From the NCBI GenBank assembly GCA_041492755.1, contig JBGPXN010000002.1, positions 14,883 through 78,882 on the forward strand: a stretch of 64,000 nt of DNA, read 5' to 3'. Numbering within the stretch: position 1 is the stretch's first letter; each line of letters starts with the position of its first letter. Of this stretch, positions 1,763 through 58,459 are shown one piece after another. This stretch comes from Candidatus Methylomirabilia bacterium (lineage in GTDB: Bacteria; Methylomirabilota; Methylomirabilia; Rokubacteriales; CSP1-6). Both the position numbers and the translations under genes were made by a program. The notes beneath the pieces were generated by a model. That model was not told the DNA's origin and did not search any database. It saw only the letters and a program-made list of their open reading frames with translations.

Positions 1763-1791
1763 CTCGGCCAACTTCGATCGGTCACCCGTCT

Positions 1792-1854
1792 CGGCGGGAG
1801 GGGGACGGGTCGCTGCGCTAACTATTCGCTCCGCGACCCGTCCCCCTCCCGCCG
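1792..1854. repeat. Perfect long palindromic element (22-bp arms, 19-nt loop), possible terminator/REP-like element
   Basis: CGGCGGGAGGGGGACGGGTCGC (1792..1813) is the exact reverse complement of GCGACCCGTCCCCCTCCCGCCG (1833..1854). It lies 30 nt after the TPR gene stop. Confidence 0.85.
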
Positions 1855-1883
1855 GTTGGGCCGCTCGCTCTTGCTGGGCGCGG

Positions 1884-1947
1884 GCTAACTGCTTCGATTC
1901 CGGCAGGCGCATTCGCTGCGCGACCTGTCTCCACTCCCTCCCGCCGG
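1884..1947. repeat. Degenerate second copy of the loop plus right arm of the 1792..1854 element
   Basis: GCTAACT...ATTCGCTGCGCGACCTGTCTCCACTCCCTCCCGCCGG parallels GCTAACTATTCGCTCCGCGACCCGTCCCCCTCCCGCCGG of the first copy. It lacks the left arm. Confidence 0.6.
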
Positions 1948-2028
1948 GCAATCGGCTCGTGCTGAGCTCAGGCCATCGGATCGAGTGCAGCCCCCCGGAT
2001 GCTTGCGAAAGCGGCTAATCTAGGGCGC

Positions 2029-24263: not shown

Positions 24264-25556
24264 TCAGGCGGCGCCGTCCCGGCCGACGCCATCCCGCGCC
24301 GCGCCGTCGCGCGCCACGCCGTCGCCCGCCACGACGTCGCGGGGGGCGGCGTTGCGGGCCGCGCCGTCGGGTATCGAGCGCTCGGCGGAATCTTGGTCGC
24401 GATCCAGGCCGTACTCTTCGATCTTCGAGAGCAGCGATTTGTAGCTGATTTCCAGGATTCGCGCGGCCCGCGTGCGGTTCCAACGGACGCGGCCCAGTAC
24501 CTCGTGGATGACGGCGCGTTCGGCCGCGCGCGCGGCCTGGCGCGCCACCTGCTTGAGCCCGCCCGGCACGTCGATGATGAGTCCGAGGTCGTCGGACGAG
24601 GTCTTCGCGGGCCGCTCGGTCCGGATTCGCGTGAGCAGCTCCGTGTGCACGGCGGCGGCTCCGTCGAGGACGACCATGCGCCGGACGACGTTCTCGAGCT
24701 CGCGCACGTTGCCGGGCCAGCCGTACGTGGCAAAGACCTCCAGCGTCTCGGGAGGGATCATGACCTTGCGGCCGTACTCCGCGTTGAAGCGCTCCAGGAA
24801 GTGCGCGGCCAGCACGGGGATCTCGTCGCGCCGCTCGCGGAGCGGCGGCACGTGGATCTCGATGACCTTGAGGCGGAAGTAGAGGTCCTCACGGAACTCG
24901 CCGTCGCGCATGGCGGATTCGAGATCGCGGTTCGTGGCGGCGATGAGGTGGACGTCGACTTCCACCGGTTGGTCGCCGCCCACGCGGCAGAACCGGCCGT
25001 CCTGCAACACGTGGAGCAGCTTGGCCTGGAGCGCGGGGGCCAGCTCGCCAATCTCGTCCAGGAGCAAGGTGCCCCGGTGGGCGACCTCGAACTTCCCCTG
25101 ACGACGGCGATGGGCCCCGGTGAACGCCCCCTTCTCGTGGCCGAACAGCTCCGACTCCAGCAGCTCGGCCGGCAGCGCTGCGCAGTTGACCTTCACGAAC
25201 GGCTGACCCGCGCGCGGTGACGCGCGATGGATGGCGTGCGCGACGACTTCCTTGCCTACGCCGCTCTCGCCCCGGAGCAGGACGGTGGCGCTCGCGCGGG
25301 CGACCTTGCCGATCAGCTCGCGCAGGCCGCGGAGCGCGCGGCTCTCCCGCACCCAGGCGCCGTCGCCGACGACGGAGGCGAGCCAGACGGCGCCGACACT
25401 GGACCACGCGCCGAGCGACCGCCGGACGGCGCTGACGGCGGCGAGGGCTTGCGGATCGCCCACGACGTGCTCGATGACGCGCCTGGTGACGAAGACCATC
25501 GGGATTGCGGCCGCGGCGAGGCCGCAGCGGAGCCACAAACGGGAACGCGTGTTCAT
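24264..25556 (-). CDS. Sigma54-dependent transcriptional activator (bEBP), no receiver domain
   Basis: AAA+ core with Walker A GESGVGKE, the GAFTGA motif (HEKGAFTGA) and a C-terminal Fis-type HTH ([19 protein letters not shown]). The ~95-aa N-terminus has two hydrophobic segments, and the C-terminal tail carries ARDG repeats. Confidence 0.85.
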
Positions 25557-26341: not shown

Positions 26342-28243
26342 ATGAAGAGCGTGTACGAGAGCGTGTATCAGCACGCCGCCAGGGATCCGGAGAGCTTCTG
26401 GGCGGCGGCCGCCGAGGACCTGTACTGGGACCGCCGATGGGACCGCGTCCTCGACGACTCGCGCAAGCCGTTCTACCGGTGGTTCCCGGGGGGCCGGCTC
26501 AACACCTGCTACAACGCGCTCGACATCCACGTCGACCGGGGCCGCGGCAAGCAGCGCGCGCTCGTGTACGACAGTCCTGTCACCGGCACCGTGCGCGCGT
26601 TCACCTATCAGGAATTGCGTGACGAGGTCGCGCGCTGCGCGGGCGCGCTCCGGCGGCAAGGCATCACGGCCGGCGACCGCGTCATCGTCTACATGCCGAT
26701 GGTGCCGGAGGCCGTCGTCGCCATGCTCGCGTGCGCCCGGATCGGCGCCATCCACTCCGTCGTTTTCGGCGGGTTCGCCGCGAACGAGCTCGCCAAGCGC
26801 ATCGACGACGCCGGGCCGCGGCTGATCCTCTCCGCGTCGTGCGGCATCGAGGTCAACCGCGTCGTGCCCTACAAGCCGCTGCTCGATGGCGCCTGCGCGA
26901 TGGCCGCGCACAAGGTCGAGCGATGCGTGATCCTCCAGCGGCCGCAAGAGAAGGCCACGCTCGTGAAAGGCCGGGATCTCGACTGGGGTGATTTTCTCGA
27001 CGGCGCCCCACCCGCGGAGTGCGTGCCGGTGGAGGCCACCGATCCCCTCTACGTCCTGTACACGTCGGGCACGACCGGCATCCCCAAGGGCGTCGTCCAC
27101 GACAACGGCGGCCACGCGGTCGCGCTCAAGTGGTCGATGAGCGGCGTCTACGGCATGGGCGCGGGCGAGACCTACTGGGCCGCCTCCGACATCGGCTGGG
27201 TCGTCGGCCACTCGTACATCGTCTACGCGCCGCTGCTCAAGGGCTGCACGACGATCCTCTACGAGGGCAAGCCCGTCGGCACGCCGGATCCCGGCGCGTT
27301 CTGGCGGCTCATCAGCCAGCACGGCGTCAACGCGCTCTTCACGGCGCCGACCGCGTTCCGCGCCATCAAGAAGGAGGATCCCCAGGGGACGTACATGCGC
27401 ACGTACGACCTTTCGCGCTTCCGGACGTTGTTCCTGGCCGGGGAGCGCTGCGATCCCGACACGCTGCTGTGGGCGCGCGAGCATCTGGGCGTGCCCGTGA
27501 TCGATCACTGGTGGCAAACGGAGACGGCGTGGCCGATCGCCGCGAACTGCGTGGGGCTCGGCATGCTGCCCGTCAAGCCGGGCTCGCCCACCAAGCCGGT
27601 GCCGGGCTACGACGTGCGCGTGCTGGACGACGCCAACCGCGAGATGCCCGCCGAGCAGATCGGCTCGATCGCGATCACGCTGCCACTGCCGCCCGGCTGC
27701 CTGCCCACGCTGTGGAACAACGACGCCGGCTACGAGAAGTCGTATCTCACCAAGCACCCGGGCTTCTACCTGACCGGCGACGCCGGCTACAAGGACGCCG
27801 ACGGGTACGTCTACATCATGAGTCGCGTGGACGACATCATCAACGTCGCCGGCCACCGGCTGTCCACGGGTGGGATGGAAGAGGTGCTCGCGGCGCATCC
27901 CGACGTCGCCGAGTGCGCGGTGGTCGGCGTGGCCGACGACATCAAGGGCGAGGTCCCGGTCGGCTTCGTGGTGACGAAGGCGGGCGTCGAGCGATCCGAG
28001 GCCGACATCGTGAAGGAGCTGGTGGAGCGGATCCGGCAGCAGATCGGCCCGGTGGCGGCGTTCAAGACGGCGATGGTCGTCCAGCGCCTGCCCAAGACGC
28101 GCTCGGGCAAAATCTTGCGCGGCACGATGAAGAAGATCGCCGACGGCGCCACCTGGACGATGCCGGCCACCATCGACGATCCCCTCATCCTCGACGAGAT
28201 CACGTCCGCCCTGCAGGGCGTCGGCTACCCCAAGAACGCGTGA
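26342..28243 (+). CDS. prpE: Propionyl-CoA synthetase-like acyl-CoA ligase (AMP-forming)
   Basis: ATG 26342. The N-terminus (YESVYQHAARDPESFWAAAAEDLYWDRRWDRVLDDSRKPFYRWFPGGRLNTCYNALD) and the AMP-binding motifs (YTSGTTGIPKG, YWAASDIGW, LTGDAGYKDADGYVYIMSRVDDIINVAGHR) fit PrpE/Acs-type enzymes. The substrate is not certain. Confidence 0.75.
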   Translation: MKSVYESVYQHAARDPESFWAAAAEDLYWDRRWDRVLDDSRKPFYRWFPGGRLNTCYNALDIHVDRGRGKQRALVYDSPVTGTVRAFTYQELRDEVARCAGALRRQGITAGDRVIVYMPMVPEAVVAMLACARIGAIHSVVFGGFAANELAKRIDDAGPRLILSASCGIEVNRVVPYKPLLDGACAMAAHKVERCVILQRPQEKATLVKGRDLDWGDFLDGAPPAECVPVEATDPLYVLYTSGTTGIPKGVVHDNGGHAVALKWSMSGVYGMGAGETYWAASDIGWVVGHSYIVYAPLLKGCTTILYEGKPVGTPDPGAFWRLISQHGVNALFTAPTAFRAIKKEDPQGTYMRTYDLSRFRTLFLAGERCDPDTLLWAREHLGVPVIDHWWQTETAWPIAANCVGLGMLPVKPGSPTKPVPGYDVRVLDDANREMPAEQIGSIAITLPLPPGCLPTLWNNDAGYEKSYLTKHPGFYLTGDAGYKDADGYVYIMSRVDDIINVAGHRLSTGGMEEVLAAHPDVAECAVVGVADDIKGEVPVGFVVTKAGVERSEADIVKELVERIRQQIGPVAAFKTAMVVQRLPKTRSGKILRGTMKKIADGATWTMPATIDDPLILDEITSALQGVGYPKNA

Positions 28244-29067
28244 CGCGCGCGCTCGACGGCGGTCGCGCGGTGGAGCGATTTACCACCGACGACCTCGCGC
28301 GCCCGCTCGCGCTCGGGCCGGGCGCCCGGCGCATCGTGTCGCTCGCGCCTTCGTGCACGGAGAGCCTGCTCGCGCTCGGCGCGGGTGACCGCCTCGTGGG
28401 TGTGGAGGAGCACTCCGAGCTGCCGCCGGCCCTCGCCCATCTGCCCCGCATCGGCGGCTTCAAGTACCTCGATCTCGCCCGCATCGTCGCCCTCGAGCCC
28501 GATCTCGTCGTGGCGGCGTCGCTGCACGCGGTCGCTGTGGTCCCGCGGCTCGCGGCCGATGGGTTACGCGTGTTCGCGTTCCTGCCGCGCACGCTCGACG
28601 ACGTCGTGGACGGCTTGGCGCGCCTGGCCGCGCGCGCGGCCGGCGGCGGGGTGGCTCGCCGCAGCCCGGGCTCGGATCGCGCGGGTGGTGGAGCGCACCG
28701 TGCGCGGGGGGCGCCGGCCGCTCGTCTACGTCGAGCTCTCCCCGCGCGGGCACACCGGGGGGCCGCAGAGCTTCGTGCACGACCTGGTCACCAAGGCCGG
28801 CGGCGTCAACGCGGGCGGGCTCGCGCGCGTGGAGTGGCCGGTGCTCTCGGCGGCGACGGTGTGCCGCCTCGATCCCGAGGTGATCGTCCTCGCGGCTATC
28901 CGGGCAGCGCGACCGCCGAGACGCTCGCCGCCCGCGACGGCTGGGCGGGCCTCGCCGCCGTCAAGACCCGGCGAGTGTTCGAAGTGCCGTCACCGACGCT
29001 GAAGCATCCGGGACCACTGGCCATCGACGGTCTCGAGTGCGTCGCGGCCCTCCTCGCTCGTGACTAG
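28240..29067 (+). pseudogene. BtuF/FhuD-like periplasmic substrate-binding protein with two compensating frameshifts
   Basis: Frame A reads RIVSLAPSCTESLLALGAGDRLVGV...DLARIVALEPDLVVA. The middle reads correctly only in another frame (RPLVYVELSP...GPQSFVHDLVTKAGGVNA...WPVLSAATVCRLDPEVIVLA, ~28640..28893). It returns to frame A after GCGGCTAT (one G apparently missing) for YPGSATAETLAARDGWAGLAAVKTRRVFEV. Confidence 0.55.
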
Positions 29068-29348
29068 ACCGGCCGGCCACCGACTTGCCTACCGCCCGGC
29101 GACACGCCGAGAGGGCTTGATGGCGCGATGCCGGGAGGGCGCTGGCGCTCTGGCGTGGGCGCGCTTGAGCCTTCATTTCGCCGAGCGCTGAGCCGTCGGT
29201 CCAGTGTCGGACCGGCAGGATCGGCCGGCCGGTGCCGCGGTGGGAGAGAGAGCGGATTTCGCGCGCCGTGCAAGAATTTATGCGCCCCCACCAGTTGTGT
29301 CAGTTCTTCGCTTGCCTCTCCCCGCCGAGGTTGGGTATAACCTTTTAC

Positions 29349-30992
29349 GTGAAGCGCGTCCTCGCGGCGGTTCTCGTCGCCCTGCTTCTCTGTCCCGCCA
29401 TCCCAGCTTCGGTCCGGGCGCAGACGACCGAGGCCGACGTCTACGTCGCCCAGGCCATCATCGACTTCGAGGAGAAGCGCTACCCGGACGCGCTCGAGAA
29501 CCTCAGGAAAGCGTCGGAGCTCGAGCCGGATCACGTCGAGGCCCTCTACTACACGGGCGTGATCGCCATGACCCAGGGCCGGACGCCCGAAGCCATCGCG
29601 CCGCTGGAGCGGGCGCGGGCCAAGGCGCCGGGCGACCCGTCGGTGGCGTTCCAGCTCGGCCTCGCCTACTTCGGACAGCAGCAGTACGACAAGGCGCAGC
29701 CGCTCCTCGAAGAGGTGTTCCGGGGGCAGCCGACGCTCGACGGCCTCGGGTACTACGTCGGGTTCATGCGATACCGCAAGAAGGATTACCGCAACGCGCT
29801 CGCCGCCTTCCGTGCCGGACGCTCCGCGGACCCCGAGCTGCAGCAGCTCACGCGGCTCTACAGCGGCCTCACCCTCGCCGTGCTCGGTCTGCCCACGCAG
29901 GCGGCGGCCGAGGTCGAGCAGTCGCTGCGATTGGCCCCGGGCTCCGCGCTCACCGGTCCCTCCGAACGATTGCGCGACACGATCGCGCAGGCGCGCTCGA
30001 AGGAAAAGCGACTCGCGATCGACCTGCGCTTCGGCTTCCTGTACGACGACAACGTCCGGGTCACGCCGGACCCGAGCAACCAGGAGCCGATCGTGCGCCC
30101 GCTCCTCCACCCGAAGCGCGATTCGCCGGGGGAGGTGGCCGGGGTCAACATCAACTACACCTTCTTCCGGACGGACTCGTGGGACGCCAGCGCCGGGTAC
30201 TCGTTCTTCGGGACGTACTACAACGACCTCACCAGCTTCAACACGACCGACCACCTGGTGAATTTCGGGCTGACCCACAAGACGGCTCTGTCGGCCACGT
30301 TTCCCTGGATCGGCGAGATCAACATGCCGGCGCAGCTCGGCGCCCAGTACGCGTTCGACGTGCTCTACCTGCGCGAGGACCAGTTCATCCAGCGGCACAC
30401 CGGGACGGTCTACGCCGCGGTCGTCGAGAACGATCTCCTGCTGACCCAGGCCTTCATGCGCTACCAGCGCAAGGACTTCACCGAGCCCGACATCCGCCCG
30501 CCTCGCGAGGAGATCCGCGACGCCGACAACTACATGGTCGGCTTCGTCCAGCTCTTCCGCTTCGAGGAGGACCGGCACTTCATCAAGCTGGGATACCAGT
30601 TCGACTACGAGGAGACGTCCGGGAAGAACTACGAGTACCGCGGGCACCGGCTCACCGCGGGCGGCCAGTACACGCTGCCCTGGTATGGCATCCGGCTGAA
30701 GTACGACATGGATGCGCACATCCGCGGCTACGTCCACAAGAACAGCCTGCTGCCGACCGTCGATGAGACCGGTGTCCCCGGATCCGGGCAAGACAAAAAG
30801 CGCCGGCGCGACCACGAGATCACGCACGTCATGCGCGTAGAGTGGCCGCTGCCGTGGAAGCCCCGGCTGTTCGACCGCGACACCGAGTTCGTGCTGGCGG
30901 GGGAGCACCAGAACACCGGCGCTCACTCCAACATCCAGGTCTTCGACTACGATCGCCGCGTGACCTCGCTGATCCTGTCCTGGTCCTTCTGA
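29349..30992 (+). CDS. Outer-membrane protein: N-terminal TPR domain plus C-terminal beta-barrel
   Basis: GTG 29349 gives the signal peptide VKRVLAAVLVALLLCPAIPASVRA. TPR repeats cover ~residues 25-230 (YPDALENLRKASELEPDHVEALYYTGV...). The C-terminal ~300 aa has alternating amphipathic strands and ends in LILSWSF (terminal aromatic). The architecture is like Slam/DUF560 or BcsC/PgaA-type exporters. Confidence 0.65.
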   Translation: MKRVLAAVLVALLLCPAIPASVRAQTTEADVYVAQAIIDFEEKRYPDALENLRKASELEPDHVEALYYTGVIAMTQGRTPEAIAPLERARAKAPGDPSVAFQLGLAYFGQQQYDKAQPLLEEVFRGQPTLDGLGYYVGFMRYRKKDYRNALAAFRAGRSADPELQQLTRLYSGLTLAVLGLPTQAAAEVEQSLRLAPGSALTGPSERLRDTIAQARSKEKRLAIDLRFGFLYDDNVRVTPDPSNQEPIVRPLLHPKRDSPGEVAGVNINYTFFRTDSWDASAGYSFFGTYYNDLTSFNTTDHLVNFGLTHKTALSATFPWIGEINMPAQLGAQYAFDVLYLREDQFIQRHTGTVYAAVVENDLLLTQAFMRYQRKDFTEPDIRPPREEIRDADNYMVGFVQLFRFEEDRHFIKLGYQFDYEETSGKNYEYRGHRLTAGGQYTLPWYGIRLKYDMDAHIRGYVHKNSLLPTVDETGVPGSGQDKKRRRDHEITHVMRVEWPLPWKPRLFDRDTEFVLAGEHQNTGAHSNIQVFDYDRRVTSLILSWSF

Positions 30993-31090
30993 TTAATGAG
31001 CGACGACCGCCCCCGACGGGCGGTCAGGCAGGAGTCGCCGACTTCGCAGCCTTCGTGATCTTCAGGGGGTCTTCGGGGTCTCCGTGACCT

Positions 31091-31471
31091 TCACGGGGCC
31101 TTCTTCATCTTGACGTAACGCTGGCGGTTGTTCTCGAAGGCCCACTCGTTGGTGTCCTTCACGTCCACCCGCTGCTTCTTGCCCGCGTCCTCGATCAGCT
31201 TCTTGCGCTCGTCGAGCAGGCCCTTGAGCTCGTTCTGCATGTCCTGGGCCTGCCGCTGGAGCAGCGCGAAGTTGGCGAGGATGGCGGACATCTTCGCCTC
31301 CGTCGCCGCCGCCTTCAGCGTGGTCTGCTCGTCGAGGCGGATCTCCTCGCCGGGCCCGGGCTGGGGCGTGGTGGCCTGAGCGAGTTGGACCGGGCTGGGT
31401 TGCGCTGCCACCGGCGCGACCACGAGCGTGGTTGCGGTGAGCGCCACGGCCATCGACACGACAGCCTTCAT
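31091..31471 (-). CDS. Small secreted coiled-coil protein
   Basis: Signal peptide MKAVVSMAVALTATTLVVAPVAAQ, then a heptad-like helical region (AILANFALLQRQAQDMQNELKGLLDERKKLIEDAGKK). It lies 52 nt downstream of the giant FecR-domain gene. Confidence 0.6.
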   Translation of the reverse strand: MKAVVSMAVALTATTLVVAPVAAQPSPVQLAQATTPQPGPGEEIRLDEQTTLKAAATEAKMSAILANFALLQRQAQDMQNELKGLLDERKKLIEDAGKKQRVDVKDTNEWAFENNRQRYVKMKKAP

Positions 31472-31523
31472 TCGGAATCCTTCTCCTCTGTCCCGAGTTC
31501 TTCTTACCGCAACGCGACGTCCA

Positions 31524-34500
31524 TCACCCGCCGCCGTTGCCGCCGGTACCCGTGATGACGAGCCGGCTGTTGGCCCCGCTCAGGATGACGTCGGCGGTGC
31601 TGATGGCGCTCCGGGTGATGGTCCCCGAGCCCGCGATCCCGCCCCCGCTCCCCACACTGATGTTGGAGGAGGAGGCGCCGTTCTGGATGGCGACGTTGAG
31701 GCCGCCAAAGCTGAGGCACGACGTGCCGCAGGCCGTGTTGGTGATGTTGACGGTGTTGCTACCGGTCCCGAACCGGTACATCACACCGGTGATGTTCACC
31801 ACCGCGGTGCCGCTGATCGACAGCGGTGCGCCGTTGCTCACGCGGAGGGTGCTGCCGCTGCTGAGGGAAAAGAGGTCGCCGCTGACTCGCAGCAGGCTGT
31901 CGTTCACACGCACGGCGGCTCCGCTGTTGACGGTCAGGGTGCTCGCGATGAGCTCGACCAGGTTCCCCGCCGCGGTGAGCTTCGCCTTGTTGCTGAGATC
32001 GATGGCGTCGAGCGCGGTCGTGAGGCTACTGCCGGGCGCGCCCGTCGCGGAGGTCAGTCGCAGGATCGGCATGCTGGCTTGCACCAGCGCATCGTCTTGT
32101 AGATAGAACTTCTGGGGCACGGTCGATCCCGACCCGAACGTGGCGTCCTTGGCCTCCATGAAGACGCCGCCGTGCGACAGCGGGACGTCCGTGCCCGTCG
32201 TGACGTTCACGGCGCCCGCGCTCGTCTCGCCGCCCACGGCTTCGGTGGTGAAGGCGGTGGTCCGGCCGCTGAGGCGGAACATCGCGGAGTCCGTCGCGAT
32301 CGCCGTCGCGATAGCGTGCGTCCCGCCCGTGAAGCTCGTCAGCGGGTCTGTCGACCCGTTCACTTGCAGGTTGGCGTTCTCCTGCACCCTGACCAAGCCG
32401 TGCGTCGCGTTCAGGATGCTGCCAACGGAGAGCAGCGGCCCGTTCAGCGTTACCGTAGCCGGCGATCCCGAACTCACCGGGCCCCCCAGCGCGCTGATGC
32501 TCAGCACGCGACCGTCGAAGCCGGCCGAGCCGGCGTTCAGCGTCGAGTTGCTGAGCGTGATCAGCGGCGACGTCGTTGTGCTCGTGAGCTGCCCACCTTG
32601 GAACACGCCGATCACGTCACTGCTGAAGGTCGAGGTCGTGGAGCCCGTCGCGGAGAGGAGCGGGCCGGCCAGAGTCACCGTGGACAGCGTTGAACCCGTG
32701 GATCCGCTGACGTTCAGCAACCGACCGCCGATCGAGCCCGAGCCGGCGCTGAGGGTGGAGGTGCCGATGAGGGAGATCAATGGCGCCGTCGTTGTGCTCG
32801 TCAGTCTGGCGCCGCTCAATACGCCGATCACGTCATTGGTGAAGCTCAAGTCCGGCGAGATCGTCGCCGGCAACGGCCCGGCCAAGAGGACCGGGCCGGC
32901 CAGCGTCACCGCCGCCGTCGCGGAACCCGTGGTCCCTCCTGCGCCACTGACGCTCAGCAGCCGCCCGCTGAACGCGGTAGACCCGGCGCGAAGCGTCGTT
33001 CCGCCGCTCAGGGTCACCAACGGCGCCGTCGTCGTGCTCGCCAGGGTCGCGCCATTGAACACGCCGATCACGTCACCCGTGAAGCTCAGCGTGGAGCTGG
33101 TCGCCGAGAGCAGCGGGCCGGCCAGAGACACGCTGGTCGCCAGCGCCGCGACGTTGGCCGTCGGCTGGTTGGCAAGGAGCAGGGCGCCGTAGGTCGTGGT
33201 GCCGTCGATCACGTTGGTGCCGCCGGCGGTCAACGTCGACGAGTCGGTCACGGTCATGAGGGCGACCGGGCTCGTGCTGGTGAAGCTCGACTGATTCACG
33301 GACAACGTGGAGAACAGCGAGGTCAACCTGCTGGCCGCCGGGTTCGGCGTCGCTTGGGTCACCGGATCCTTCGCCATCGACAACAGCGGGCCGGCGAGGT
33401 TGACGCTGGCGGAGGCGGTGAGGGACTCGCCCAGGTTCGTGGCCGTCACGTGAAAGAAGGTGCCACCCGACTGGCTGTCGGGGCCCGCGCTGAAGGTGGA
33501 GCTCGTGAGCTGGATCAGGGCACCGGCGCCGGTTCCGGTGAGACGGCCTCCCTGACCGATGAAGAACCCGCTGCAGCAAGCCGACCGCGAGCCGCCGGGG
33601 AGGAATCCGAGGCTCGTGGTGTTGAAGCTGCTGTTGTTGCTCGCCACCAGCAGCGGGCCCGCGATGCTCATCGACGGGATGGCCTGGCTCAGGGTGTTGC
33701 GCAGGGTCAGGATGTTGGCCGACGTGTCCACGGTCGTGTTGCTGAACGACATCAGCGGCCCGGTGCCGGTGCTCGTGAAGCTCGTGCCGTTGCCGATGAA
33801 GACGAAGCTCTGGGTGTTACTGGTCGGCAGGCCGTTCTGGATGGTGGTGTTCGCCGCAGCGACGAGCGGCCCCGCCAGGGTGATCGAGACGGGGGCGTTG
33901 CCTGCCGCCGAGGACGCGGTGAAGAAGTTACCCGTGCCCCCCGCGGTGGCGGAGCCGCCGGTGATCGAGATCAACGGCTCGCCCGACGTGCTGGATAACG
34001 TCGAGCCGTCGAAGATCCCGAAGGCGTCGTCGGTCGTCAGGATCGTGGCGTTGGTCGACTTCCACAGTGGCCCACGGAGGCTGACATTCGTGAGCGCAGG
34101 GTTGCCCGTCGAGTTGCTGAGCGCCAGCGTTACGAGCCGGCCCGTCGTCGTGGACCCGTCGATCGGGCTGGGCCCGCCGATGTTGATGGTCGTGCCGTCG
34201 AACGCCAGCAGCGGATCGGTGGTCGTGCTCGAGAGCGTGCCGCGGAAGACGCCCAGCACGTTCTGGAGCGCCGCGACAGTGCCACCCGTCATGCTGAGCA
34301 GCGCGCCTGCCAGCGTCACCGATGGCGTCGCCACGACCGTTGGCTCACCCAGGATCGACGTGAAGTCGAAGATGCTGATCACGCGGTTGCCGAGGTTGAG
34401 CGCCGTGCCGTTGAGCTGGATGAGCGGCGTGGTGGTCGTGCTCGTGAAGCGCGTGCCCTGACCGACCGCGAGCAGGTTGCAGCAGAGCTGCCGGGCGCCC

Positions 34501-36167
34501 GACTGATCGAAGAAGGCCGAGCTGAAGGACCGGAAGCTCCCACCGGCGGCTCGGAGCAGCGGCCCCGCGAGATCCACGGTCGGCGCCGGGCCGCCGAAGC
34601 GATTCCGCGCGGTGAAGAGGCTGCCCGAGCTGCTGACCGTGCTGTTCGTGAGCTGGACGAACGGGTCGCTGCTGGTGCCGCGGATAACGGCCCCATCACC
34701 GGCAAGGGCGAAAGCCAGCGCGTTGGCGTTCGGCCCGCTTTCCACGCCATTGACGAGGGTGCTGCCGTCGGCCGTGAGCAAGGCCCCGGCCAGGGTGAGG
34801 CGGCCATTCTCGATGAACGCGAAGTTCGCGCCGGCGTTCAACGTGCTGTTCCTGAACTGCACGAGCGTTCCGTTGTCGTTGCCGGTCACGATGGCGCCCC
34901 GGAGGAGCAGTGCCTCACGCGGAAGGTTAATGATGCTGTTGGCTACGGTCAGCAGGGGCGACGCCAGCGTGAGGTTGGCGCCTGCGAGGGCCGCGATCGC
35001 GGGGTCAGCGGTCAAGAGATTGAGGGTCGCACTATTGCTGATCTGGGCCAGCGCAGCCAAAGAGGTGCGGTTCAGCGTGGTACTGAAGCGGAAAACAGAG
35101 TTCTGAACGTTGAGCGTTCCTCCGGACAGAACGAACGGGTCACCCTGCAGTGGACCAGCGATCGTGATAGGGAACTGCAGTACGCCGGCGGTGGTGGTGA
35201 AGAACGGTATGCCGGAGAGAGCGACAAAGCTGCAGCCCTGTGCGCTACACAGTGGCGGTGCCACTGCGGCCTGGGCTGTTGCTATGACCGCCATCAGCGT
35301 TTCGCATTGCTGCGATCCGTTACACAGTGCGTTGTACTCCGTGTGTAGCGTGTTTGTCGTCGTGGTCACGGGCTGGATCGGCAGGGGCGCTGGCGCCGAA
35401 AGGCCCCCACCGGGCGTGGGACCCACCAGCCTGTTCACGAGGTTCGTGGCTGTTAACACCGCCTGCTCACGGACCTGTGCGCGATTGCCCGCCTCGGTGG
35501 CCTGCACACCCTGCGGCTGCAGACCCGACGTCACCTGCTGCACCTGCTCGGGCGGGATCGGAGCGATCCGTGGCGGCGCGTTGCCGGTGGCGGTGAAAGA
35601 CTGCAGCACGTTGAGCGGCTGCGGCGGCCCCACGGGCGCCCGCGTGACCGGATCGAGCTGGGTGGCGAGCACCGTGCCGCGGAGCACGTAGAAGTTCGTG
35701 GTGACCGCCGGCGCGCCGGCGCCGGCCTGGGCGCTGGCGCGCAGGACCTCGGCGACGACGACCGTACCGCGCACGGCGGCGACCGCGTTGGGGGTGCGGA
35801 TCTCGATCTGCTCACCGGGGCGCAGCTTCTCGCGGGCGACGGCCAGCGCGATCTTGCCGGATTCCAGGTCGACCGTGGACCGGCCAGGCACCTCGGTGAT
35901 GTTGAGGATGGAGCGCTCGCGGACGGTAACGACCGCCTTGCCGCCCAGGAGCATGCGGGCCAGCGACCGATCGCCGGTGGTGATGCGGTCGCGCAGGAAG
36001 ACGTCGTCCTTGAACTTGAGGGACACGGGCGCGGTACCGCGGGTGGCGGTGACGGTGCCTTCGAGGGTGGTGACGACGCCGGCTTTCTCCTGCTGGGCCA
36101 GAACCAGCGTGGGCCAGAAGGTAAACAGCGCGAGGAGGGTGGCGAGCGCACGACGGAACATCACCAT
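31524..36167 (-). CDS. Giant secreted FecR-domain protein with Thr/Ser/Gly/Ala-rich beta-helix-like repeats (1547 aa)
   Basis: ATG 36167 after GGGAGG. Signal MVMFRRALATLLALFTFWPTLVLAQ. FecR-like N-domain (AGVVTTLEGTVTATRG...DDVFLRDRITTGDRSLARMLLGGKAVVTVRERS...IEIRTPNAVAAVRGT). It then has at least nine ~65-aa units of the form VTLAGPLLSA..S.F..DVIGVF.G..L.STTT.PL..L....L.AGS...GRLL.VSG. Confidence 0.8.
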   Translation of the reverse strand: MVMFRRALATLLALFTFWPTLVLAQQEKAGVVTTLEGTVTATRGTAPVSLKFKDDVFLRDRITTGDRSLARMLLGGKAVVTVRERSILNITEVPGRSTVDLESGKIALAVAREKLRPGEQIEIRTPNAVAAVRGTVVVAEVLRASAQAGAGAPAVTTNFYVLRGTVLATQLDPVTRAPVGPPQPLNVLQSFTATGNAPPRIAPIPPEQVQQVTSGLQPQGVQATEAGNRAQVREQAVLTATNLVNRLVGPTPGGGLSAPAPLPIQPVTTTTNTLHTEYNALCNGSQQCETLMAVIATAQAAVAPPLCSAQGCSFVALSGIPFFTTTAGVLQFPITIAGPLQGDPFVLSGGTLNVQNSVFRFSTTLNRTSLAALAQISNSATLNLLTADPAIAALAGANLTLASPLLTVANSIINLPREALLLRGAIVTGNDNGTLVQFRNSTLNAGANFAFIENGRLTLAGALLTADGSTLVNGVESGPNANALAFALAGDGAVIRGTSSDPFVQLTNSTVSSSGSLFTARNRFGGPAPTVDLAGPLLRAAGGSFRSFSSAFFDQSGARQLCCNLLAVGQGTRFTSTTTTPLIQLNGTALNLGNRVISIFDFTSILGEPTVVATPSVTLAGALLSMTGGTVAALQNVLGVFRGTLSSTTTDPLLAFDGTTINIGGPSPIDGSTTTGRLVTLALSNSTGNPALTNVSLRGPLWKSTNATILTTDDAFGIFDGSTLSSTSGEPLISITGGSATAGGTGNFFTASSAAGNAPVSITLAGPLVAAANTTIQNGLPTSNTQSFVFIGNGTSFTSTGTGPLMSFSNTTVDTSANILTLRNTLSQAIPSMSIAGPLLVASNNSSFNTTSLGFLPGGSRSACCSGFFIGQGGRLTGTGAGALIQLTSSTFSAGPDSQSGGTFFHVTATNLGESLTASASVNLAGPLLSMAKDPVTQATPNPAASRLTSLFSTLSVNQSSFTSTSPVALMTVTDSSTLTAGGTNVIDGTTTYGALLLANQPTANVAALATSVSLAGPLLSATSSTLSFTGDVIGVFNGATLASTTTAPLVTLSGGTTLRAGSTAFSGRLLSVSGAGGTTGSATAAVTLAGPVLLAGPLPATISPDLSFTNDVIGVLSGARLTSTTTAPLISLIGTSTLSAGSGSIGGRLLNVSGSTGSTLSTVTLAGPLLSATGSTTSTFSSDVIGVFQGGQLTSTTTSPLITLSNSTLNAGSAGFDGRVLSISALGGPVSSGSPATVTLNGPLLSVGSILNATHGLVRVQENANLQVNGSTDPLTSFTGGTHAIATAIATDSAMFRLSGRTTAFTTEAVGGETSAGAVNVTTGTDVPLSHGGVFMEAKDATFGSGSTVPQKFYLQDDALVQASMPILRLTSATGAPGSSLTTALDAIDLSNKAKLTAAGNLVELIASTLTVNSGAAVRVNDSLLRVSGDLFSLSSGSTLRVSNGAPLSISGTAVVNITGVMYRFGTGSNTVNITNTACGTSCLSFGGLNVAIQNGASSSNISVGSGGGIAGSGTITRSAISTADVILSGANSRLVITGTGGNGGG

Positions 36168-36232
36168 GGGGCCTCCCGGAAACCGTCGGCGAAGATTGGC
36201 GGCCGCGCGACTGACGAGACTTTCATCAACAG

Positions 36233-36284
36233 TCTCGCGATCATCGGCCGCGCGAGGTATTTTTGTCAACGAAGAATCGCGAGA
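36233..36284 (-). promoter_or_regulatory. Candidate promoter/operator of the FecR-domain gene
   Basis: On the coding (minus) strand, a perfect -35-like TTGACA (plus-strand TGTCAA 36264..36269) is bracketed by the 9-bp inverted repeat TCTCGCGAT (36233..36241) / ATCGCGAGA (36276..36284). The -10 is weak. Confidence 0.25.
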
Positions 36285-36413
36285 GTCCCCACCCAACGGC
36301 CGGGGCGCGCCGACAACCCCGCGGGATCGTTGATTCCACGCTGGCCGCGTGATAGCGTGATGGCGCTCAGCGTGCCCGTCGGGCACGCCTCCACGCACGA
36401 ATTCCGGCGGCGC

Positions 36414-36491
36414 GGGCTCGTGGTGCAGCCTGGTTAGCACACTGGACTGTCAATCCAGAGGCCGCGGGTTCAAATCCCGTCGAGCCCGCCA
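36414..36491 (+). tRNA. tRNA-Asp (anticodon GTC)
   Basis: Acceptor GGGCTCG/CGAGCCC, D arm GTGC-AGCCTGGTTA-GCAC, anticodon arm CTGGA-CTGTCAA-TCCAG, T arm GCGGG-TTCAAAT-CCCGT, encoded GCCA end. Confidence 0.9.
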
Positions 36492-36500
36492 CTAATCCAA

Positions 36501-36537
36501 ACACGTAGGGCCGGGGTGAGCACCCGGCCCTACGTGT
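36501..36537 (+). terminator. Perfect 15-bp-stem hairpin immediately after tRNA-Asp
   Basis: ACACGTAGGGCCGGG-GTGAGCA-CCCGGCCCTACGTGT. Only a short CTT follows, so rho-independent function is uncertain. Confidence 0.4.
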
Positions 36538-36792
36538 CTTGTAGCGGTTCTGTAGCGGTCAACGAGCCCGCCCCCTCGATCGCGCGACGCTTCTCGATGA
36601 TCGCGGCGAGTTCGGCATCGAGGTCCGGCGCCGGCCCGCGCGTCAGGCGGGTGAGGAGAATGGCGCGCGTCGTGCGCTCGATGGACAATCACAAATGCGG
36701 CCTGGGCACGGCGCAGCGTAGGCGGCGAGCGTGACGGAGGGCACTACCACGGATCGGATACCGTCGGGTTCCGCTCACACAACGTCCGGCGC

Positions 36793-37443
36793 ATGAGTCC
36801 TCGGTCGTCGCGATGGGCTATCGTCCTGGCCGTGGTCGTGTTGATCGGGGCCCTCATTGCTGGGCTCCCGACAACTCGAGAGCCGATTCTCAGGGCCGCT
36901 GGAGGGGTTCTCGTAGCCAGCGATCCGCTCGGGCCGGCCGAGATCATCGTCATCGCGGTGGATGCCGGCGGCGCCGGCGTGCTCGAAGCCGCGGACCTGG
37001 TTCACGGCGGTATCGCGCCGCGGGTCGCGATCTTCGCCGATCCTCCCGACGCTCTGGATCGCGAGTTCCTGCGCCGTGGACTCCCCTATGAAGACGCGGC
37101 CGCACGCTCCGCCCGTCAACTCCGGTCGCTCGGGGTGACCGCCGTCGAGCTGATCCCCAGAGCTGTCGCCGGAACCGAGGCCGAGGGGGAGGCGCTTCCC
37201 GGTTGGTGCGACCAGCATCAGTTCCGCTTCATCGTCGTCGTAACCTCAACCGACCATGCGCGGCGGTTACGCCGAGTCCTCCGCCGATCCATGAAGGGGC
37301 GTCAGACAACGGTCATGGTGCGACCCGCCCGCTACTCGGCATTCGATCCCGATCGATGGTGGGAAACTCGCGCGGGTCTCCGCGAGGGAATCATCGAGCT
37401 CCAGAAGCTGTTGCTCGACGTCGTGCGTCACCCGATTTCATGA
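36793..37443 (+). CDS. YdcF/ElyC (DUF218) family protein
   Basis: N-terminal TM anchor, then AEIIVIAVDAGG...GIAPRVAIFAD...FRFIVVVTSTDHARRLRRVL, the DUF218 layout. Confidence 0.6.
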   Translation: MSPRSSRWAIVLAVVVLIGALIAGLPTTREPILRAAGGVLVASDPLGPAEIIVIAVDAGGAGVLEAADLVHGGIAPRVAIFADPPDALDREFLRRGLPYEDAAARSARQLRSLGVTAVELIPRAVAGTEAEGEALPGWCDQHQFRFIVVVTSTDHARRLRRVLRRSMKGRQTTVMVRPARYSAFDPDRWWETRAGLREGIIELQKLLLDVVRHPIS

Positions 37444-38281
37444 GGTATACCGCGTCGCGGGTCAAGCCAGCATTGGCACCCGGCCGATCACCGCCGCCGA
37501 CCGCGGTCCGCCGCTCTGGGCCTCGCCGGTACGACCACCCGGCGCGACTTCACGGCCTCGGCCCTCACCGCGTCCGGCGTGTTGGTGAGCGCAGCAGCCA
37601 TGTCTTCGACGGCACGATGCGATCGCGCCGGTTGATCGAGTCTGCTCCTCACCGCCCTCCGGGTCCTTCCGGCGGCGCGCGTCAGGCGAAGGGAAAGCAC
37701 GGCCCGGATCAACGGCCGCGCGGAATTTCCCCTCCCGGGCTCGGCCACGCGGCGCGCGTGTCATGGGCCAACCGTCCGCGCGTGCGTACGCTGCGAACGT
37801 GGCCCCAGGGGTCGTCGCAGTACCCATTGCAGCCCTCGTGCGGGCCGGTCAGCTTGAACAGCAGCAACGACAGCGCACCGATCAGTCGCTTCATATCCAC
37901 CTCCGAATTCGACGCCAGGGGACCAGGGATGGCGGCAAATATCACGCCAAAGCCCGAATAGGACGATCCCATCGGCTCCCGGCCATTTCCGCAACACCCC
38001 ATGGCCGACCGATACGCGAATCATTCACTGGGTGCGCAACGGTGTTGCAGGCTCCGCAGAGACTTGCCTCAGGTGACCCGTAACCGGGCGCGGCGTGCCC
38101 ATCGACCAACGGGCGCGCTGATGGCGACCTGCCGCGACCGTCTTGACCTTGGTTGGGTGTGGGCGCAGTATCCCAGCCGTTGATCGAGGCCTTCACCGAT
38201 CCTCATCGACGTGTGGCGCGGCCAGCCCCCGACAGGAGCCCGGCGAGCCCGCACGTCCAACGAGCACCATGCGGAGGTCCC

Positions 38282-39298
38282 ATGAGCACCAGCAGGCGCA
38301 CGTTTCTGACGACCGCCACCGCCGCCGCAGTGATGGCTTCCTCGCCGCGTGTCTTCGCCGAGTGGGAGCCCAGTCAGCGGTATCCGGATCCCGCCGTCAA
38401 GCTGATCGATCCGAGCTTTGGGCGCTATCGGCTGAACCTGGCGAGGGTCGAGCGTTTGGGGACAGGGTTCCGCTGGTGCGAGGGGCCGGTGTGGTTCGGG
38501 GACGGACGCTATCTGCTCTGGAGCGACATCCCGAACAACCGGATCATGCGCTGGGACGAAGAGACGGGGGCCGTCAGCGTCTACCGCAAGCCGTCGAATT
38601 TCTCCAACGGCAACACGCGCGACCGCCAGGGGCGACTCGTCACGTGCGAGCACGGCACTCGGCGGGTCACACGCACGGAGTACGACGGCAGCGTCACCGT
38701 CATCGCCGACAAGTTCGAGGGCAAGCCGCTCAACTCGCCGAACGACGTGGTGTGCAAATCCGACGGCTCGATCTGGTTCAGCGATCCACCGTTCGGCATC
38801 CTCGGTTTGTACGAGGGCTACGTCGCCAAAGTGGAACTGCCCACGAACGTGTATCGCGTCGACGGCAAGACCGGGAACATCACGGTCGCGGCGGGCGACG
38901 TGAACCGGCCGAACGGACTGTGCTTCTCACCGGACGAGTCGAAGCTCTACATCATCGAAGGCGGCGTCACTCCGCGCATCATCCACGCCTACGACATGGT
39001 CGATGGCGGCACCCGGCTCGCCAACAAGCGCAAGCTCATCGACGCCGGGCCGGGGACGCCGGACGGCATGCGCTGCGACGTGGACGGCAACATCTGGTGC
39101 GGCTGGGGCATGGGGCAGGAGGGGCTCGACGGTGTCTGGGTGTTCAACCCCGACGGCAAGCACATCGGCCGTATCGACCTGCCCGCGCGCTGCGCCAACC
39201 TCTGCTTCGGCGGCGTGCAGCGCAACCGGCTGCTCATGTGCGGCAGCACGGCGATGTACTCGCTCTACGTCAACACGCAGGGCGCGGTCGGCGGCTGA
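38282..39298 (+). CDS. Tat-signal SMP-30/gluconolactonase/LRE-family beta-propeller
   Basis: MSTSRRTFLTTATAAAVMASSPRVFA twin-arginine signal. CEGPVWFGDGRYLLWSDIPNNRIMRWD, NSPNDVVCKSDGSIWFSDP, RPNGLCFSPDESKLYI and PDGMRCDVDGNIW are the classic blades. Confidence 0.85.
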   Translation: MSTSRRTFLTTATAAAVMASSPRVFAEWEPSQRYPDPAVKLIDPSFGRYRLNLARVERLGTGFRWCEGPVWFGDGRYLLWSDIPNNRIMRWDEETGAVSVYRKPSNFSNGNTRDRQGRLVTCEHGTRRVTRTEYDGSVTVIADKFEGKPLNSPNDVVCKSDGSIWFSDPPFGILGLYEGYVAKVELPTNVYRVDGKTGNITVAAGDVNRPNGLCFSPDESKLYIIEGGVTPRIIHAYDMVDGGTRLANKRKLIDAGPGTPDGMRCDVDGNIWCGWGMGQEGLDGVWVFNPDGKHIGRIDLPARCANLCFGGVQRNRLLMCGSTAMYSLYVNTQGAVGG

Positions 39299-41322: not shown

Positions 41323-41571
41323 TCCGCGCTCGCCGGTGTGACCGTGCTCGATCTCGCCACCTTCCTCGCGGCCCCGTGTGCGCCATGCTGCTCGGTGAAT
41401 TCGGCGCCGACGTCATCAAAGTGGAGCACACGTCCGGGCGCGAGAGAACATCGTGTGGATGGCGGTGGAAGACCTCGGCGTGCTGCTGATGCCGGGCCGT
41501 CCCAGCCGGGGCAGGACAACGAGGAAATCTACGGAGGGCGGCTCGGCCTGGCTTTCGCGGCGAGGGCCGTT
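41323..41571 (+). pseudogene. Remnant of a family III CoA-transferase (CaiB/BaiF-like) with frameshift and large internal deletion
   Basis: LAGVTVLDLATFLAAP (one frame) continues as VCAMLLGEFGADVIKVEH in the -1 frame (a missing G at ~41369..41372). About 60 nt later only the C-terminal-like GQDNEEIYGGRLGL remains, so ~300 codons are absent. Confidence 0.55.
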
Positions 41572-43534: not shown

Positions 43535-43707
43535 GGCCTCGAACCCTACCACGGAGAGCCGGTGTGTTGCTAGGTTCGTCGGGCGCGGCGCGTCCGGCCG
43601 GTCCCGGGGTGACGGCATCCTGACGTCCAGCGTCAGCCGATGACACGCTGACGCGACGTCGAGCGGCGGGATCCGAGCCGCCCCGCCCGAAAGTCGGCGG
43701 TTCCTCC

Positions 43708-58286: not shown

Positions 58287-58459
58287 GCTCGTACAAAGCA
58301 AGCTGAAGTAGCTTCTTATCACCCCTAGTCCGGGTCTCGGGGTTTCTCCCGCCCAAAATACGGGCGGCGCCGGATCGACGCCACTTCAGAACTTTCCTAT
58401 CCTGTTCACACCCGCCGAAAAACTTTTCACATGGAAGTGCACATGCGCCCTTCTTCGAC

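Follow-up and report, generated by a model that had tools for sequence, protein, structure and literature searches.

The 64-kb stretch of DNA considered here (the window) comes from a metagenome-assembled genome (MAG) of Rokubacteria/Methylomirabilota. Between positions 29349 and 36167 it encodes a predicted outer-membrane protein (OMP) built of tetratricopeptide repeats (TPRs) and a beta-barrel, a small secreted coiled-coil protein, and a giant protein headed by a FecR domain. Sequence comparison and structural models lead us to favour, moderately, the view that the OMP and the giant belong to a widespread, conserved module for envelope signalling, of which they form the extracytoplasmic half and a CHASE2 cyclase the other. 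The module most likely serves cell-envelope signalling and not export alone, because its third member is a CHASE2 adenylate/guanylate cyclase; with such a partner, the FecR domain would be back in a signalling role. An earlier interpretation made from the letters alone (the sequence-only reading) had placed the three genes correctly and had suggested a dedicated display or export system for the giant. The partnership of OMP and FecR protein on which it relied is supported by what follows, whereas the third partner, the cyclase, escaped it.

CHASE2 is a widespread extracytoplasmic sensor domain for which, to our knowledge, neither a direct ligand nor a direct partner has been defined. The outcome of the analysis is a concrete three-protein hypothesis for the input of envelope or surface signals to CHASE2 cyclases: one cyclase orthologue group is co-inherited with a barrel protein and a protein with a FecR domain, and the FecR subunit ranges from a small, presumably periplasmic, protein to a fibre of up to about 2600 amino acids (aa). 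The TPR protein of such gene clusters is modelled here as an outer-membrane barrel with a Slam-like architecture, which would extend Slam-like barrels beyond the Proteobacteria and beyond cargo with a C-terminal eight-strand barrel. In addition, a large family of "hypothetical" giants gains a proposed function in Rokubacteria, which are uncultured and come mainly from soil and groundwater metagenomes.

The barrel protein and the FecR-headed giant

The OMP gene faces the convergent genes of the giant and the coiled-coil protein. The features of the three are as follows (coordinates, strand, feature).

29349..30992, +, OMP gene, 547 aa (Pfam scan, AlphaFold2 model, 884 homologues)
29349..29420, +, predicted OMP signal peptide, residues 1-24, cleavage after VRA, read from sequence
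29430..29996, +, predicted periplasmic TPR domain, residues 28-216, about 11 helices (Pfam, model, Foldseek)
30009..30986, +, modelled 14-strand beta-barrel, residues 221-546 (AlphaFold2; SlipAM/DUF560 nearest Pfam family, sub-threshold)
31524..36167, -, giant gene, 1547 aa, a single open reading frame (ORF), G+C at third codon positions (GC3) 0.88
36096..36167, -, predicted signal peptide of the giant, residues 1-24, cleavage after VLA, read from sequence
35388..36095, -, conserved FecR-N module, residues 25-260, with the Pfam FecR domain at residues 60-141 (35745-35990)
34968..35387, -, Pro-rich linker, residues 261-400, with two close Cys pairs (282/288 and 307/312)
32628..34967, -, variable Thr/Ser/Gly/Leu-rich repeat region, residues 401-1180, defined by composition and motif spacing
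31527..32627, -, conserved C-terminal beta-solenoid domain, residues 1181-1547, with a conserved Cys pair, up to the end of the protein
31091..31471, -, coiled-coil protein, 126 aa, with a signal peptide, on the same strand as the giant and 52 nucleotides (nt) past its stop codon

The homologues of the OMP carry "TPR repeat protein" as their sole annotation. Its description by the sequence-only reading as TPRs followed by a barrel was borne out, since strong Pfam TPR matches span residues 25-200 (TPR_2, TPR_16 and TPR_19 at E 1e-14 to 1e-17, best 3.5e-17) and the AlphaFold2 model, which was run with an alignment of 26 homologues (mean pLDDT 77), consists of the 11 or so helices and then the 14 strands, joined by a low-confidence hinge at residues 180-218. 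The OMP orthologues end in an aromatic residue (...SW.Y/F), as is typical of outer-membrane barrels. The single cysteine, Cys15, is not conserved in the family consensus; thus, the OMP is not a lipoprotein.

The same reading had likened the OMP to Slam (DUF560) translocons, and here the result is divided. The only non-TPR Pfam match is to SlipAM/DUF560 (PF04575), over residues 267-493, and its score of 19.2 bits lies below the cut-off of 22 (16.3 bits in the genome scan); TPR_Slam likewise reaches 31.3 bits against a cut-off of 35.2. Among 26 members of the OMP family, SlipAM is matched by 11 and TPR_Slam by 23 (both at E<=0.01, with a best SlipAM value of 6e-7). A profile made from the barrel only retrieved 1774 representatives (E<0.001) from a set of 1.84 billion proteins, and all of the 57 distant full-length relatives have TPRs in front of barrels that match SlipAM (10), BBP2_2 (9) or DUF2860 (8). 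A further profile search from these 57 OMPs was swamped by TPR proteins beyond the sister clade described below, and a PDB search with the OMP sequence profile returned TPR proteins only. In Foldseek comparisons with the PDB, the helical part resembles MamA and designed TPR proteins (CTPR; target-normalised template-modelling score, TMt, 0.7-0.78), the barrel is closest to the 14-strand CymA and OmpG (TMt 0.55-0.6), and no Slam structure is among the matches of the model. Sequence relationships therefore suggest that the OMP belongs to a large TPR-plus-barrel family that is poorly covered by Pfam and lies at the fringe of the Slam family, and the model suggests the architecture of Slam itself, periplasmic TPRs followed by a 14-strand barrel. 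The likeness stands in architecture and in the nearest barrel family; it falls short in the SlipAM score and in the missing cargo barrel of type 11 systems.

The other resemblance that had been proposed, to BcsC and PgaA, fared poorly. It would make the OMP a TPR-porin of the BcsC/PgaA/PelB type for an exopolysaccharide, and the beta-helix proteins AlgG-like periplasmic modifiers of the polymer. BcsC is indeed the top Foldseek match of the whole chain, but with a template-modelling score (TM) of just 0.32; NCBIfam matches to PrsT, PgaA and BcsC were obtained, but they are confined to the TPR part and far under their cut-offs, and the 14 modelled strands contrast with the 16 reported for PgaA-type porins (PMC8406197). 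The matches of some distant relatives to BBP2_2, and the presence of AlgG and glycosidases among the low-ranking fold matches of the giant's solenoid, could be cited in its favour, although those fold matches are insignificant and Pfam and NCBIfam detect no Beta_helix, CASH or lyase domain in the giant. In addition, no glycosyltransferase or synthase domain occurs among the scanned neighbours in the window or in the Pfam-annotated loci of the sister clade, the Rokubacteria loci having been screened by BLAST with a few queries only. We therefore consider a polymer-export porin very improbable.

The giant begins, as the sequence-only reading had it, with a signal peptide and a FecR head (PF04773, 34.3 bits against a cut-off of 24; range 34-37 bits). 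A longer reading of 1638 aa was rejected as an artefact, because a tRNA-Asp gene (36414-36491, opposite strand) lies within the added 5' stretch. Paralogues and orthologues mostly share 45-66% identity in the FecR-N module (tblastn, genome search). In the NCBIfam scan, the module shows a weak resemblance to Lsa33 and Lsa19, which are surface adhesins of Leptospira; PDB searches with its sequence and with its profile gave nothing significant. The Thr/Ser/Gly repeats that had been noticed are also real: the middle of the protein contains 15% Thr, 13% Ser and 12% Gly in units of about 75 aa starting with LAGPLL, and they are visible at the protein level only, as a search for DNA tandem repeats in the gene found none.

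At the C-terminus there is no barrel, anchor or sorting motif, including the eight-strand barrel of type 11 cargo, in agreement with the earlier claim that barrel and anchor are lacking. The last 398 residues are instead modelled by AlphaFold2 as a continuous all-beta solenoid of short strands (pLDDT 93, pTM 0.93). Foldseek gave no PDB match for it at E<0.001 (best E 0.014), and the non-significant top matches are Ag43, SRRP, pertactin and phage tailspikes. Neither Pfam nor NCBIfam detects a TbpBBD-type domain in the giant.

The giant has 241 homologues. Among the 120 matches listed, all 120 possess the N-terminal module (about 250 residues) and 117 of the 120 long homologues listed carry the C-terminal domain (about 360 residues) at the very end. 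The middle differs between homologues, some of which have YVTN/lactonase beta-propellers instead, and the FecR-headed fibre proteins span about 1000-2600 aa. One metagenomic contig (L138, 1-13294) encodes four FecR-headed proteins, each of about 1000-1100 aa and all in one orientation, three of them in direct tandem and with no OMP nearby; it looks like a paralogue array of the kind known for variable surface proteins. The genome of the window has only two FecR-domain genes. The protein of the other (L041, G000:C278, 900-3191, -) combines a middle rich in Trp with a long tail of Pro-rich repeats; it shares nothing with the giant beyond the FecR domain and was set aside.

The signal peptide and position of the 126-aa protein also agree with what had been noticed, yet its place in the proposed trio does not hold. 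No Pfam or NCBIfam family matches it, and its PDB matches are weak coiled-coil resemblances, none of them significant. Homologues occur in 4 of 61 genomes, in three of the four directly downstream of a FecR gene or adjoining the OMP, and in one of these three linked cases (L021/L062) the FecR genes lie elsewhere in the genome. Because it is found in so few genomes, the coiled-coil protein is not a core part; it is a real, clade-restricted accessory, and a role as periplasmic chaperone or adaptor would be a guess. As a separate observation, one homologue (L137, G013:C10, 2322-2681, -; 43% identical) has a phage-integrase gene at a distance of about 670 nt and is not near the OMP of its genome; it falls inside a probably spurious ORF of 1420 aa and is uninformative.

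Gene linkage, co-occurrence and the CHASE2 cyclase

Conservation of the neighbourhood was the test on which the sequence-only reading had staked its proposal. When 20-kb stretches around OMP orthologues of 20 relatives were inspected, a FecR-N homologue was adjacent in 16. The larger synteny set comprised 73 loci from species representatives, of which 67 were informative, and a gene for the FecR-N module or for the C-terminal domain stands beside the OMP in 55 of these 67; 42 of the 55 are convergent with a gap of less than 350 nt, six are divergent, and two or three tandem FecR copies often occur beside the OMP. Since the OMP and FecR genes are thus linked and, as shown below, also co-occur, this pair of the proposed three-gene neighbourhood is upheld, in contrast to the coiled-coil gene.

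Across 61 relatives, 23 genomes have both the OMP and FecR-N, two the OMP only, five FecR-N only and 31 neither. Genomes contain up to six FecR-N paralogues and mostly one OMP (two full-length OMP matches were found in G028 and G029), and many of the paralogues are located away from the OMP, including four in tandem on one contig. A neighbourhood accident with no functional link would accord with the roughly 12 of 67 loci, those of the closest relatives included, in which the OMP has no FecR neighbour. This explanation is already contradicted by the synteny and co-occurrence data: the linkage recurs in 55 loci and in several arrangements, it reappears in a clade whose OMPs are only 30% identical, and the genome of the window holds just the two FecR genes and a single SlipAM-like barrel, so that their adjacency is not a matter of chance. 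We regard an accident as hardly tenable.

Further support for a functional unit was provided by a third gene. A gene whose product measures about 700 aa adjoins the FecR gene (usually divergently) or the OMP gene in 23 of the 73 loci, and in the relatives this locus-linked protein consists of CHASE2, Guanylate_cyc and PilZ domains (Pfam). Two CHASE2 genes are present in the genome of the window, and one of them is the orthologue of the locus-linked cyclase. It lies on a contig other than that of the window, divergently paired with a gene of the PDEase_II type.

L135 (G000:C218) 1462-3588, +, CHASE2-cyclase-PilZ orthologue
L135 (G000:C218) 648-1418, -, Lactamase_B/PDEase_II gene, class-II cAMP phosphodiesterase-like (39.8 bits, cut-off 23.7)

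At another locus (L059), the gene just upstream of the CHASE2 cyclase has an N-terminus similar to that of the phosphodiesterase-like gene.

With orthologues defined at E<1e-100, the cyclase is found in 26 of the 61 relatives, among them 23 of the 25 OMP-positive and 25 of the 28 FecR-N-positive genomes. All three genes are present in 22 genomes and none in 31, which leaves eight exceptions, mostly incomplete MAGs; the co-occurrence of OMP, FecR-N and cyclase gives Fisher p values of 1e-9 to 1e-12, from counts that ignore shared ancestry and are not phylogenetically independent. In a sister family, the OMP is present in G047 and G049 only, and FecR-N and the cyclase orthologue occur in exactly those two genomes.

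The arrangement is more compact in the separate sister clade already mentioned, which lends independent support to the module. Here, a same-strand operon runs from the CHASE2 cyclase through the OMP to a FecR protein of 246-275 aa in four of the five contigs examined, and a FecR-N homologue directly follows the OMP in all five; the head of the giant is 35% identical to the short FecR protein of this operon. Several Rokubacteria also have short FecR-only proteins, composed of a signal peptide, FecR-N and a Pro-rich tail, together with the OMP and the cyclase, and in both clades taken together such proteins measure 246-360 aa. Since these proteins keep their adjacency to the OMP and the cyclase, the FecR head is a core unit and the fibre is not: the conserved unit is the OMP, the FecR head and the CHASE2 cyclase, and the fibre is a lineage-specific addition.

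In the sister clade, a large secreted protein of 839 to more than 1575 aa is also encoded after the short FecR gene (L142, 9090-11642; L143, 8785-13509; L144, 8602-11118). It follows the FecR gene directly in L143 and L144 and stands behind an opposite-strand response-regulator gene in L142; Kelch-type beta-propeller matches were obtained in L142 and L143, and Big_3_5 in L143. The Rokubacteria FecR giants with beta-propellers could have arisen by fusion of genes for a short FecR protein and a large secreted protein of this kind.

The proposed module, its alternatives and its surroundings

The module that we infer, from evidence that is all comparative or predicted, would work through physical contacts between OMP, FecR protein and CHASE2 domain. 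The OMP would reside in the outer membrane, its TPR domain lying on the periplasmic side, and its TPRs or its barrel would bind, hold or pass the FecR-domain protein. The conserved FecR head would touch the periplasmic CHASE2 domain, and this contact would set cAMP/cGMP synthesis by the half of the module located in the cytoplasmic membrane, namely the CHASE2 class III adenylate/guanylate cyclase with its C-terminal PilZ domain; the direction of signalling would thus be from the envelope inward. A phosphodiesterase would reset the signal, and the PilZ domain may add an input from c-di-GMP. In Rokubacteria, the FecR subunit would have been lengthened to a multigene family of beta-helical or beta-propeller fibres with a C-terminal solenoid cap, which would reach the surface, most likely through or beside the Slam-like barrel, as a sensing or adhesive element, and the 126-aa coiled-coil protein would be a lineage-specific periplasmic accessory.

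Several observations weigh against this module. The SlipAM match of the OMP is sub-threshold, and for some distant relatives the match is to BBP2_2 or DUF2860. The OMP lacks a FecR neighbour in about 12 of the 67 loci, and FecR genes are unlinked from the OMP in the closest relatives (L062, L063, L065, L066, L073 and L077). No CHASE2 gene or remnant of one is found within the 64-kb window, and the shared ancestry behind the phyletic counts has to be borne in mind. Finally, in Sinorhizobium meliloti, the FecR-domain and TPR proteins proved dispensable for perceiving the one signal that was tested (PMC5498481).

The position of the fibre is a separate matter. In beta-helices, one turn usually accounts for about 20-25 residues and a rise of about 0.5 nm, and by these general figures, which were not measured here, rods of 1000-2600 aa would extend over tens of nanometres, equal to or greater than the width of the periplasm. 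Because the rods are expected to be too long for the periplasm, because they carry Cys pairs of the disulfide type, because their middles vary within multigene arrays and because a Slam-like 14-strand barrel is modelled for their partner, the fibre may be exposed at the cell surface; given the signalling module, we hold this to be plausible, though somewhat short of probable.

The fibre could alternatively remain inside, in a complex confined to the periplasm in which the OMP acts as receptor or anchor, like NsrA of S. meliloti, and the FecR proteins, giants included, are scaffolds or co-sensors for CHASE2 with no export at all. The compact operons of cyclase, OMP and short FecR protein require no export, the classical place of FecR domains is the periplasm, where they partner outer-membrane transducers (PMC5498481), and NsrA, a barrel in the outer membrane, is needed upstream of CHASE2 cyclases (PMC7529298). 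The rod lengths just estimated are difficult to reconcile with such a complex, as are the hypervariable middles and tandem paralogue arrays, which are typical of surface proteins; moreover, the characterised barrels of the SlipAM family are translocons of surface lipoproteins and proteins (PMC8406197), the cluster of PgaA-like polysaccharide porins standing apart. A periplasm-only complex is, in our estimate, quite unlikely.

The opposite extreme is that the OMP is a type 11 Slam-like translocon which only moves the FecR-headed fibres, and perhaps the coiled-coil protein, as adhesins, so that the link to the cyclase would be regulatory or incidental. That the giant ends in a solenoid and lacks the defining eight-strand barrel of type 11 cargo (PMC8406197, PMC12282271) speaks against it, together with a SlipAM score under the cut-off, even though the TPRs, the 14-strand barrel and the nearest Pfam family are those expected of a Slam-like protein, and type 11 clusters with non-canonical partners are known, for example, cluster 3 with DUF1194 (PMC12282271). 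One OMP per several paralogous fibres in a genome, as with Slam and its cargo proteins, the conserved ends and variable middle of the fibres, and the faint similarity of FecR-N to the Leptospira adhesins would all suit a display system. It offers no reason, on the other hand, why short FecR-only proteins, which have nothing to display, still adjoin the OMP, and it leaves unexplained why one orthologue group of CHASE2 cyclases co-occurs almost perfectly with these genes. Export or display by itself therefore appears unlikely to us.

A more specific conjecture can be added. The OMP might be a non-proteobacterial relative of type 11 translocons that threads the Pro-rich linker across the outer membrane, so that the fibre would stand outside with the FecR head kept in the periplasm and resting on CHASE2, as a tethered surface antenna in which contact with the fibre, or a pull on it, would be converted directly into cAMP/cGMP. 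We consider this rather unlikely; if true, it would be the first defined input for any CHASE2 sensor.

Around the three genes, the G+C content is about 65-72%, and homologues bear names including Candidatus Rokubacteria and Methylomirabilota. The following two elements were recorded upstream of the giant.

36414-36491, +, tRNA-Asp(GTC), between the promoter region of the giant and the next gene
36240-36269, -, sigma-70-like promoter match, TTGACA-18-GATGAT, 5' of the giant gene, 10 of 12 consensus positions, a consensus match only

The tRNA-Asp was the only hit of an Rfam scan of 28000-38500. The G+C of the 30-38 kb stretch (0.65-0.68) is below that of its flanks (0.70-0.72), and for this reason the module might be held on an island integrated beside the tRNA gene.

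The Pfam scan of the neighbours identified a sigma-54 activator, an acyl-CoA synthetase, a Peripla_BP_2 binding protein and an SGL-type gluconolactonase-like protein; in line with the sequence-only reading, no domains of an extracytoplasmic function (ECF) sigma factor, a TonB-dependent receptor, or type I or type V secretion systems were detected among the neighbours scanned. The activator, which has no receiver domain, is encoded at 24264-25556 on the strand opposite to the OMP and 3.8 kb from it. Matches to the sigma-54 promoter pattern are no commoner than chance, with none upstream of the three genes. At four other loci (L028, L032, L035 and L038), a sigma-54-dependent activator is encoded directly ahead of the OMP and in the same direction; the one in L032 includes a Pfam receiver domain, and its gene shares 4 nt with that of the OMP.

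A protein with trypsin-like protease, rhodanese and cyclic nucleotide (cNMP)-binding domains is encoded at 41570-43618 (-), 5.4 kb from the start of the giant. Orthologues that are 63-71% identical lie about 3-8 kb from the OMP in at least six loci (L063, L071, L074, L076, L078 and L079), most of which also carry the CHASE2 cyclase. The protein is a candidate for a cyclic-nucleotide effector of the module, and plain local synteny could also explain the pattern. Another giant, of 1601 aa and with MBG, He_PIG, Big_9 and Big_3_5 domains, is encoded at 58307-63112 (+) and is unrelated to the FecR giant.

Comparison with known systems

The likeness to two-partner secretion (FhaC/FHA) is one of function only, in that a long beta-helical fibre with a conserved N-terminus is accompanied by a dedicated barrel with a periplasmic protein-binding domain. 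Pfam and NCBIfam give no match to POTRA, to a 16-strand Omp85-type barrel or to a TPS domain in the OMP or the giant, and the two systems are therefore not homologous. With FecA-FecR-FecI, the module shares the combination of a FecR domain, an outer-membrane barrel and a signalling output at the cytoplasmic membrane. It differs in its FecR protein, which lacks both a transmembrane and an anti-sigma part (a signal peptide is all that the giant has), in that no ECF sigma factor or TonB-dependent transducer is found among the scanned neighbours, and in its output, a nucleotide cyclase. The BiofilmReg operon of Burkholderia, which pairs a LysM-FecR protein with a CHASE2 histidine kinase (PMC5192318), likewise encodes a secreted FecR-domain protein beside a CHASE2 sensor; its output is a kinase, its FecR protein carries LysM, and no outer-membrane partner has been described for it.

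Type 11/Slam systems have been described across the Proteobacteria, and their cargo is unified by the C-terminal eight-strand barrel (PMC8406197, PMC12282271). As in Slam1/2 of Neisseria and NilB/HrpB of Xenorhabdus (PF04575), N-terminal periplasmic TPRs precede a 14-strand barrel in the modelled OMP, the OMP gene stands beside the gene of a secreted partner, and one OMP serves several putative partners. Unlike in Slam, both SlipAM and TPR_Slam remain under their gathering cut-offs, the partner has no C-terminal eight-strand barrel, the phylum is Methylomirabilota and not Proteobacteria, and the OMP is linked to a cyclase. No paper that pairs DUF560 with FecR was found in the literature searched.

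The links of CHASE2 in the papers cited are purely genetic and consist of the cAMP cascade of S. meliloti (PMC5498481, PMC7529298) and of gene clusters noted in passing (PMC9239204, PMC5192318). In S. meliloti, smc02177 (FecR) adjoins smc02178 and is near cyaD1 (SMc02176, CHASE2) and clr (PMC5498481, PMC7529298, PMC13001267), and SMb20495, a TPR protein, and NsrA, a barrel in the outer membrane, take part in the cascade as well (PMC5498481, PMC7529298). The parallel is that the CHASE2 cyclases CyaD1, CyaD2 and CyaK depend there on an outer-membrane barrel protein and that a FecR-domain gene (SMc02177) is located in the chromosomal region of a cyclase gene; the pathway also includes a secreted TPR protein and a small periplasmic protein. 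Unlike in the OMP of the window, TPR and barrel appear as separate proteins in S. meliloti. NsrA, whose barrel comprises residues 600-1200, is far longer than the 547-aa OMP, and the rhizobial FecR protein has no fibre. A tblastn search with the OMP barrel against all PLSDB plasmids gave no match, the presence of nsrA/pSymB in that collection not having been checked.

A close precedent is a four-gene cluster that a survey of the Campylobacterota noted in passing; its products are a CHASE2 adenylate cyclase, a cAMP phosphodiesterase, a TPR protein and a protein with a FecR domain (Mo et al. 2022, PMC9239204), which the survey took to share one pathway and to have spread horizontally (PMC9239204). 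All four component types are present in the genome of the window and are clustered in relatives, and the likeness rests on these component types. Here the module is split over two contigs, with clustering in 23 of 73 loci of relatives and in four of five sister-clade contigs; compared with the Campylobacterota cluster, the TPR protein is modelled with a 14-strand outer-membrane barrel, the FecR subunit is one of a multigene family of fibres and measures 1547 aa, and the cyclase carries PilZ. Because the component types are the same four, this is not a new kind of system: the type of gene cluster had already been noticed in Campylobacterota and Sinorhizobium, although it is mechanistically uncharacterised, and the Rokubacteria form is a new variation on it.

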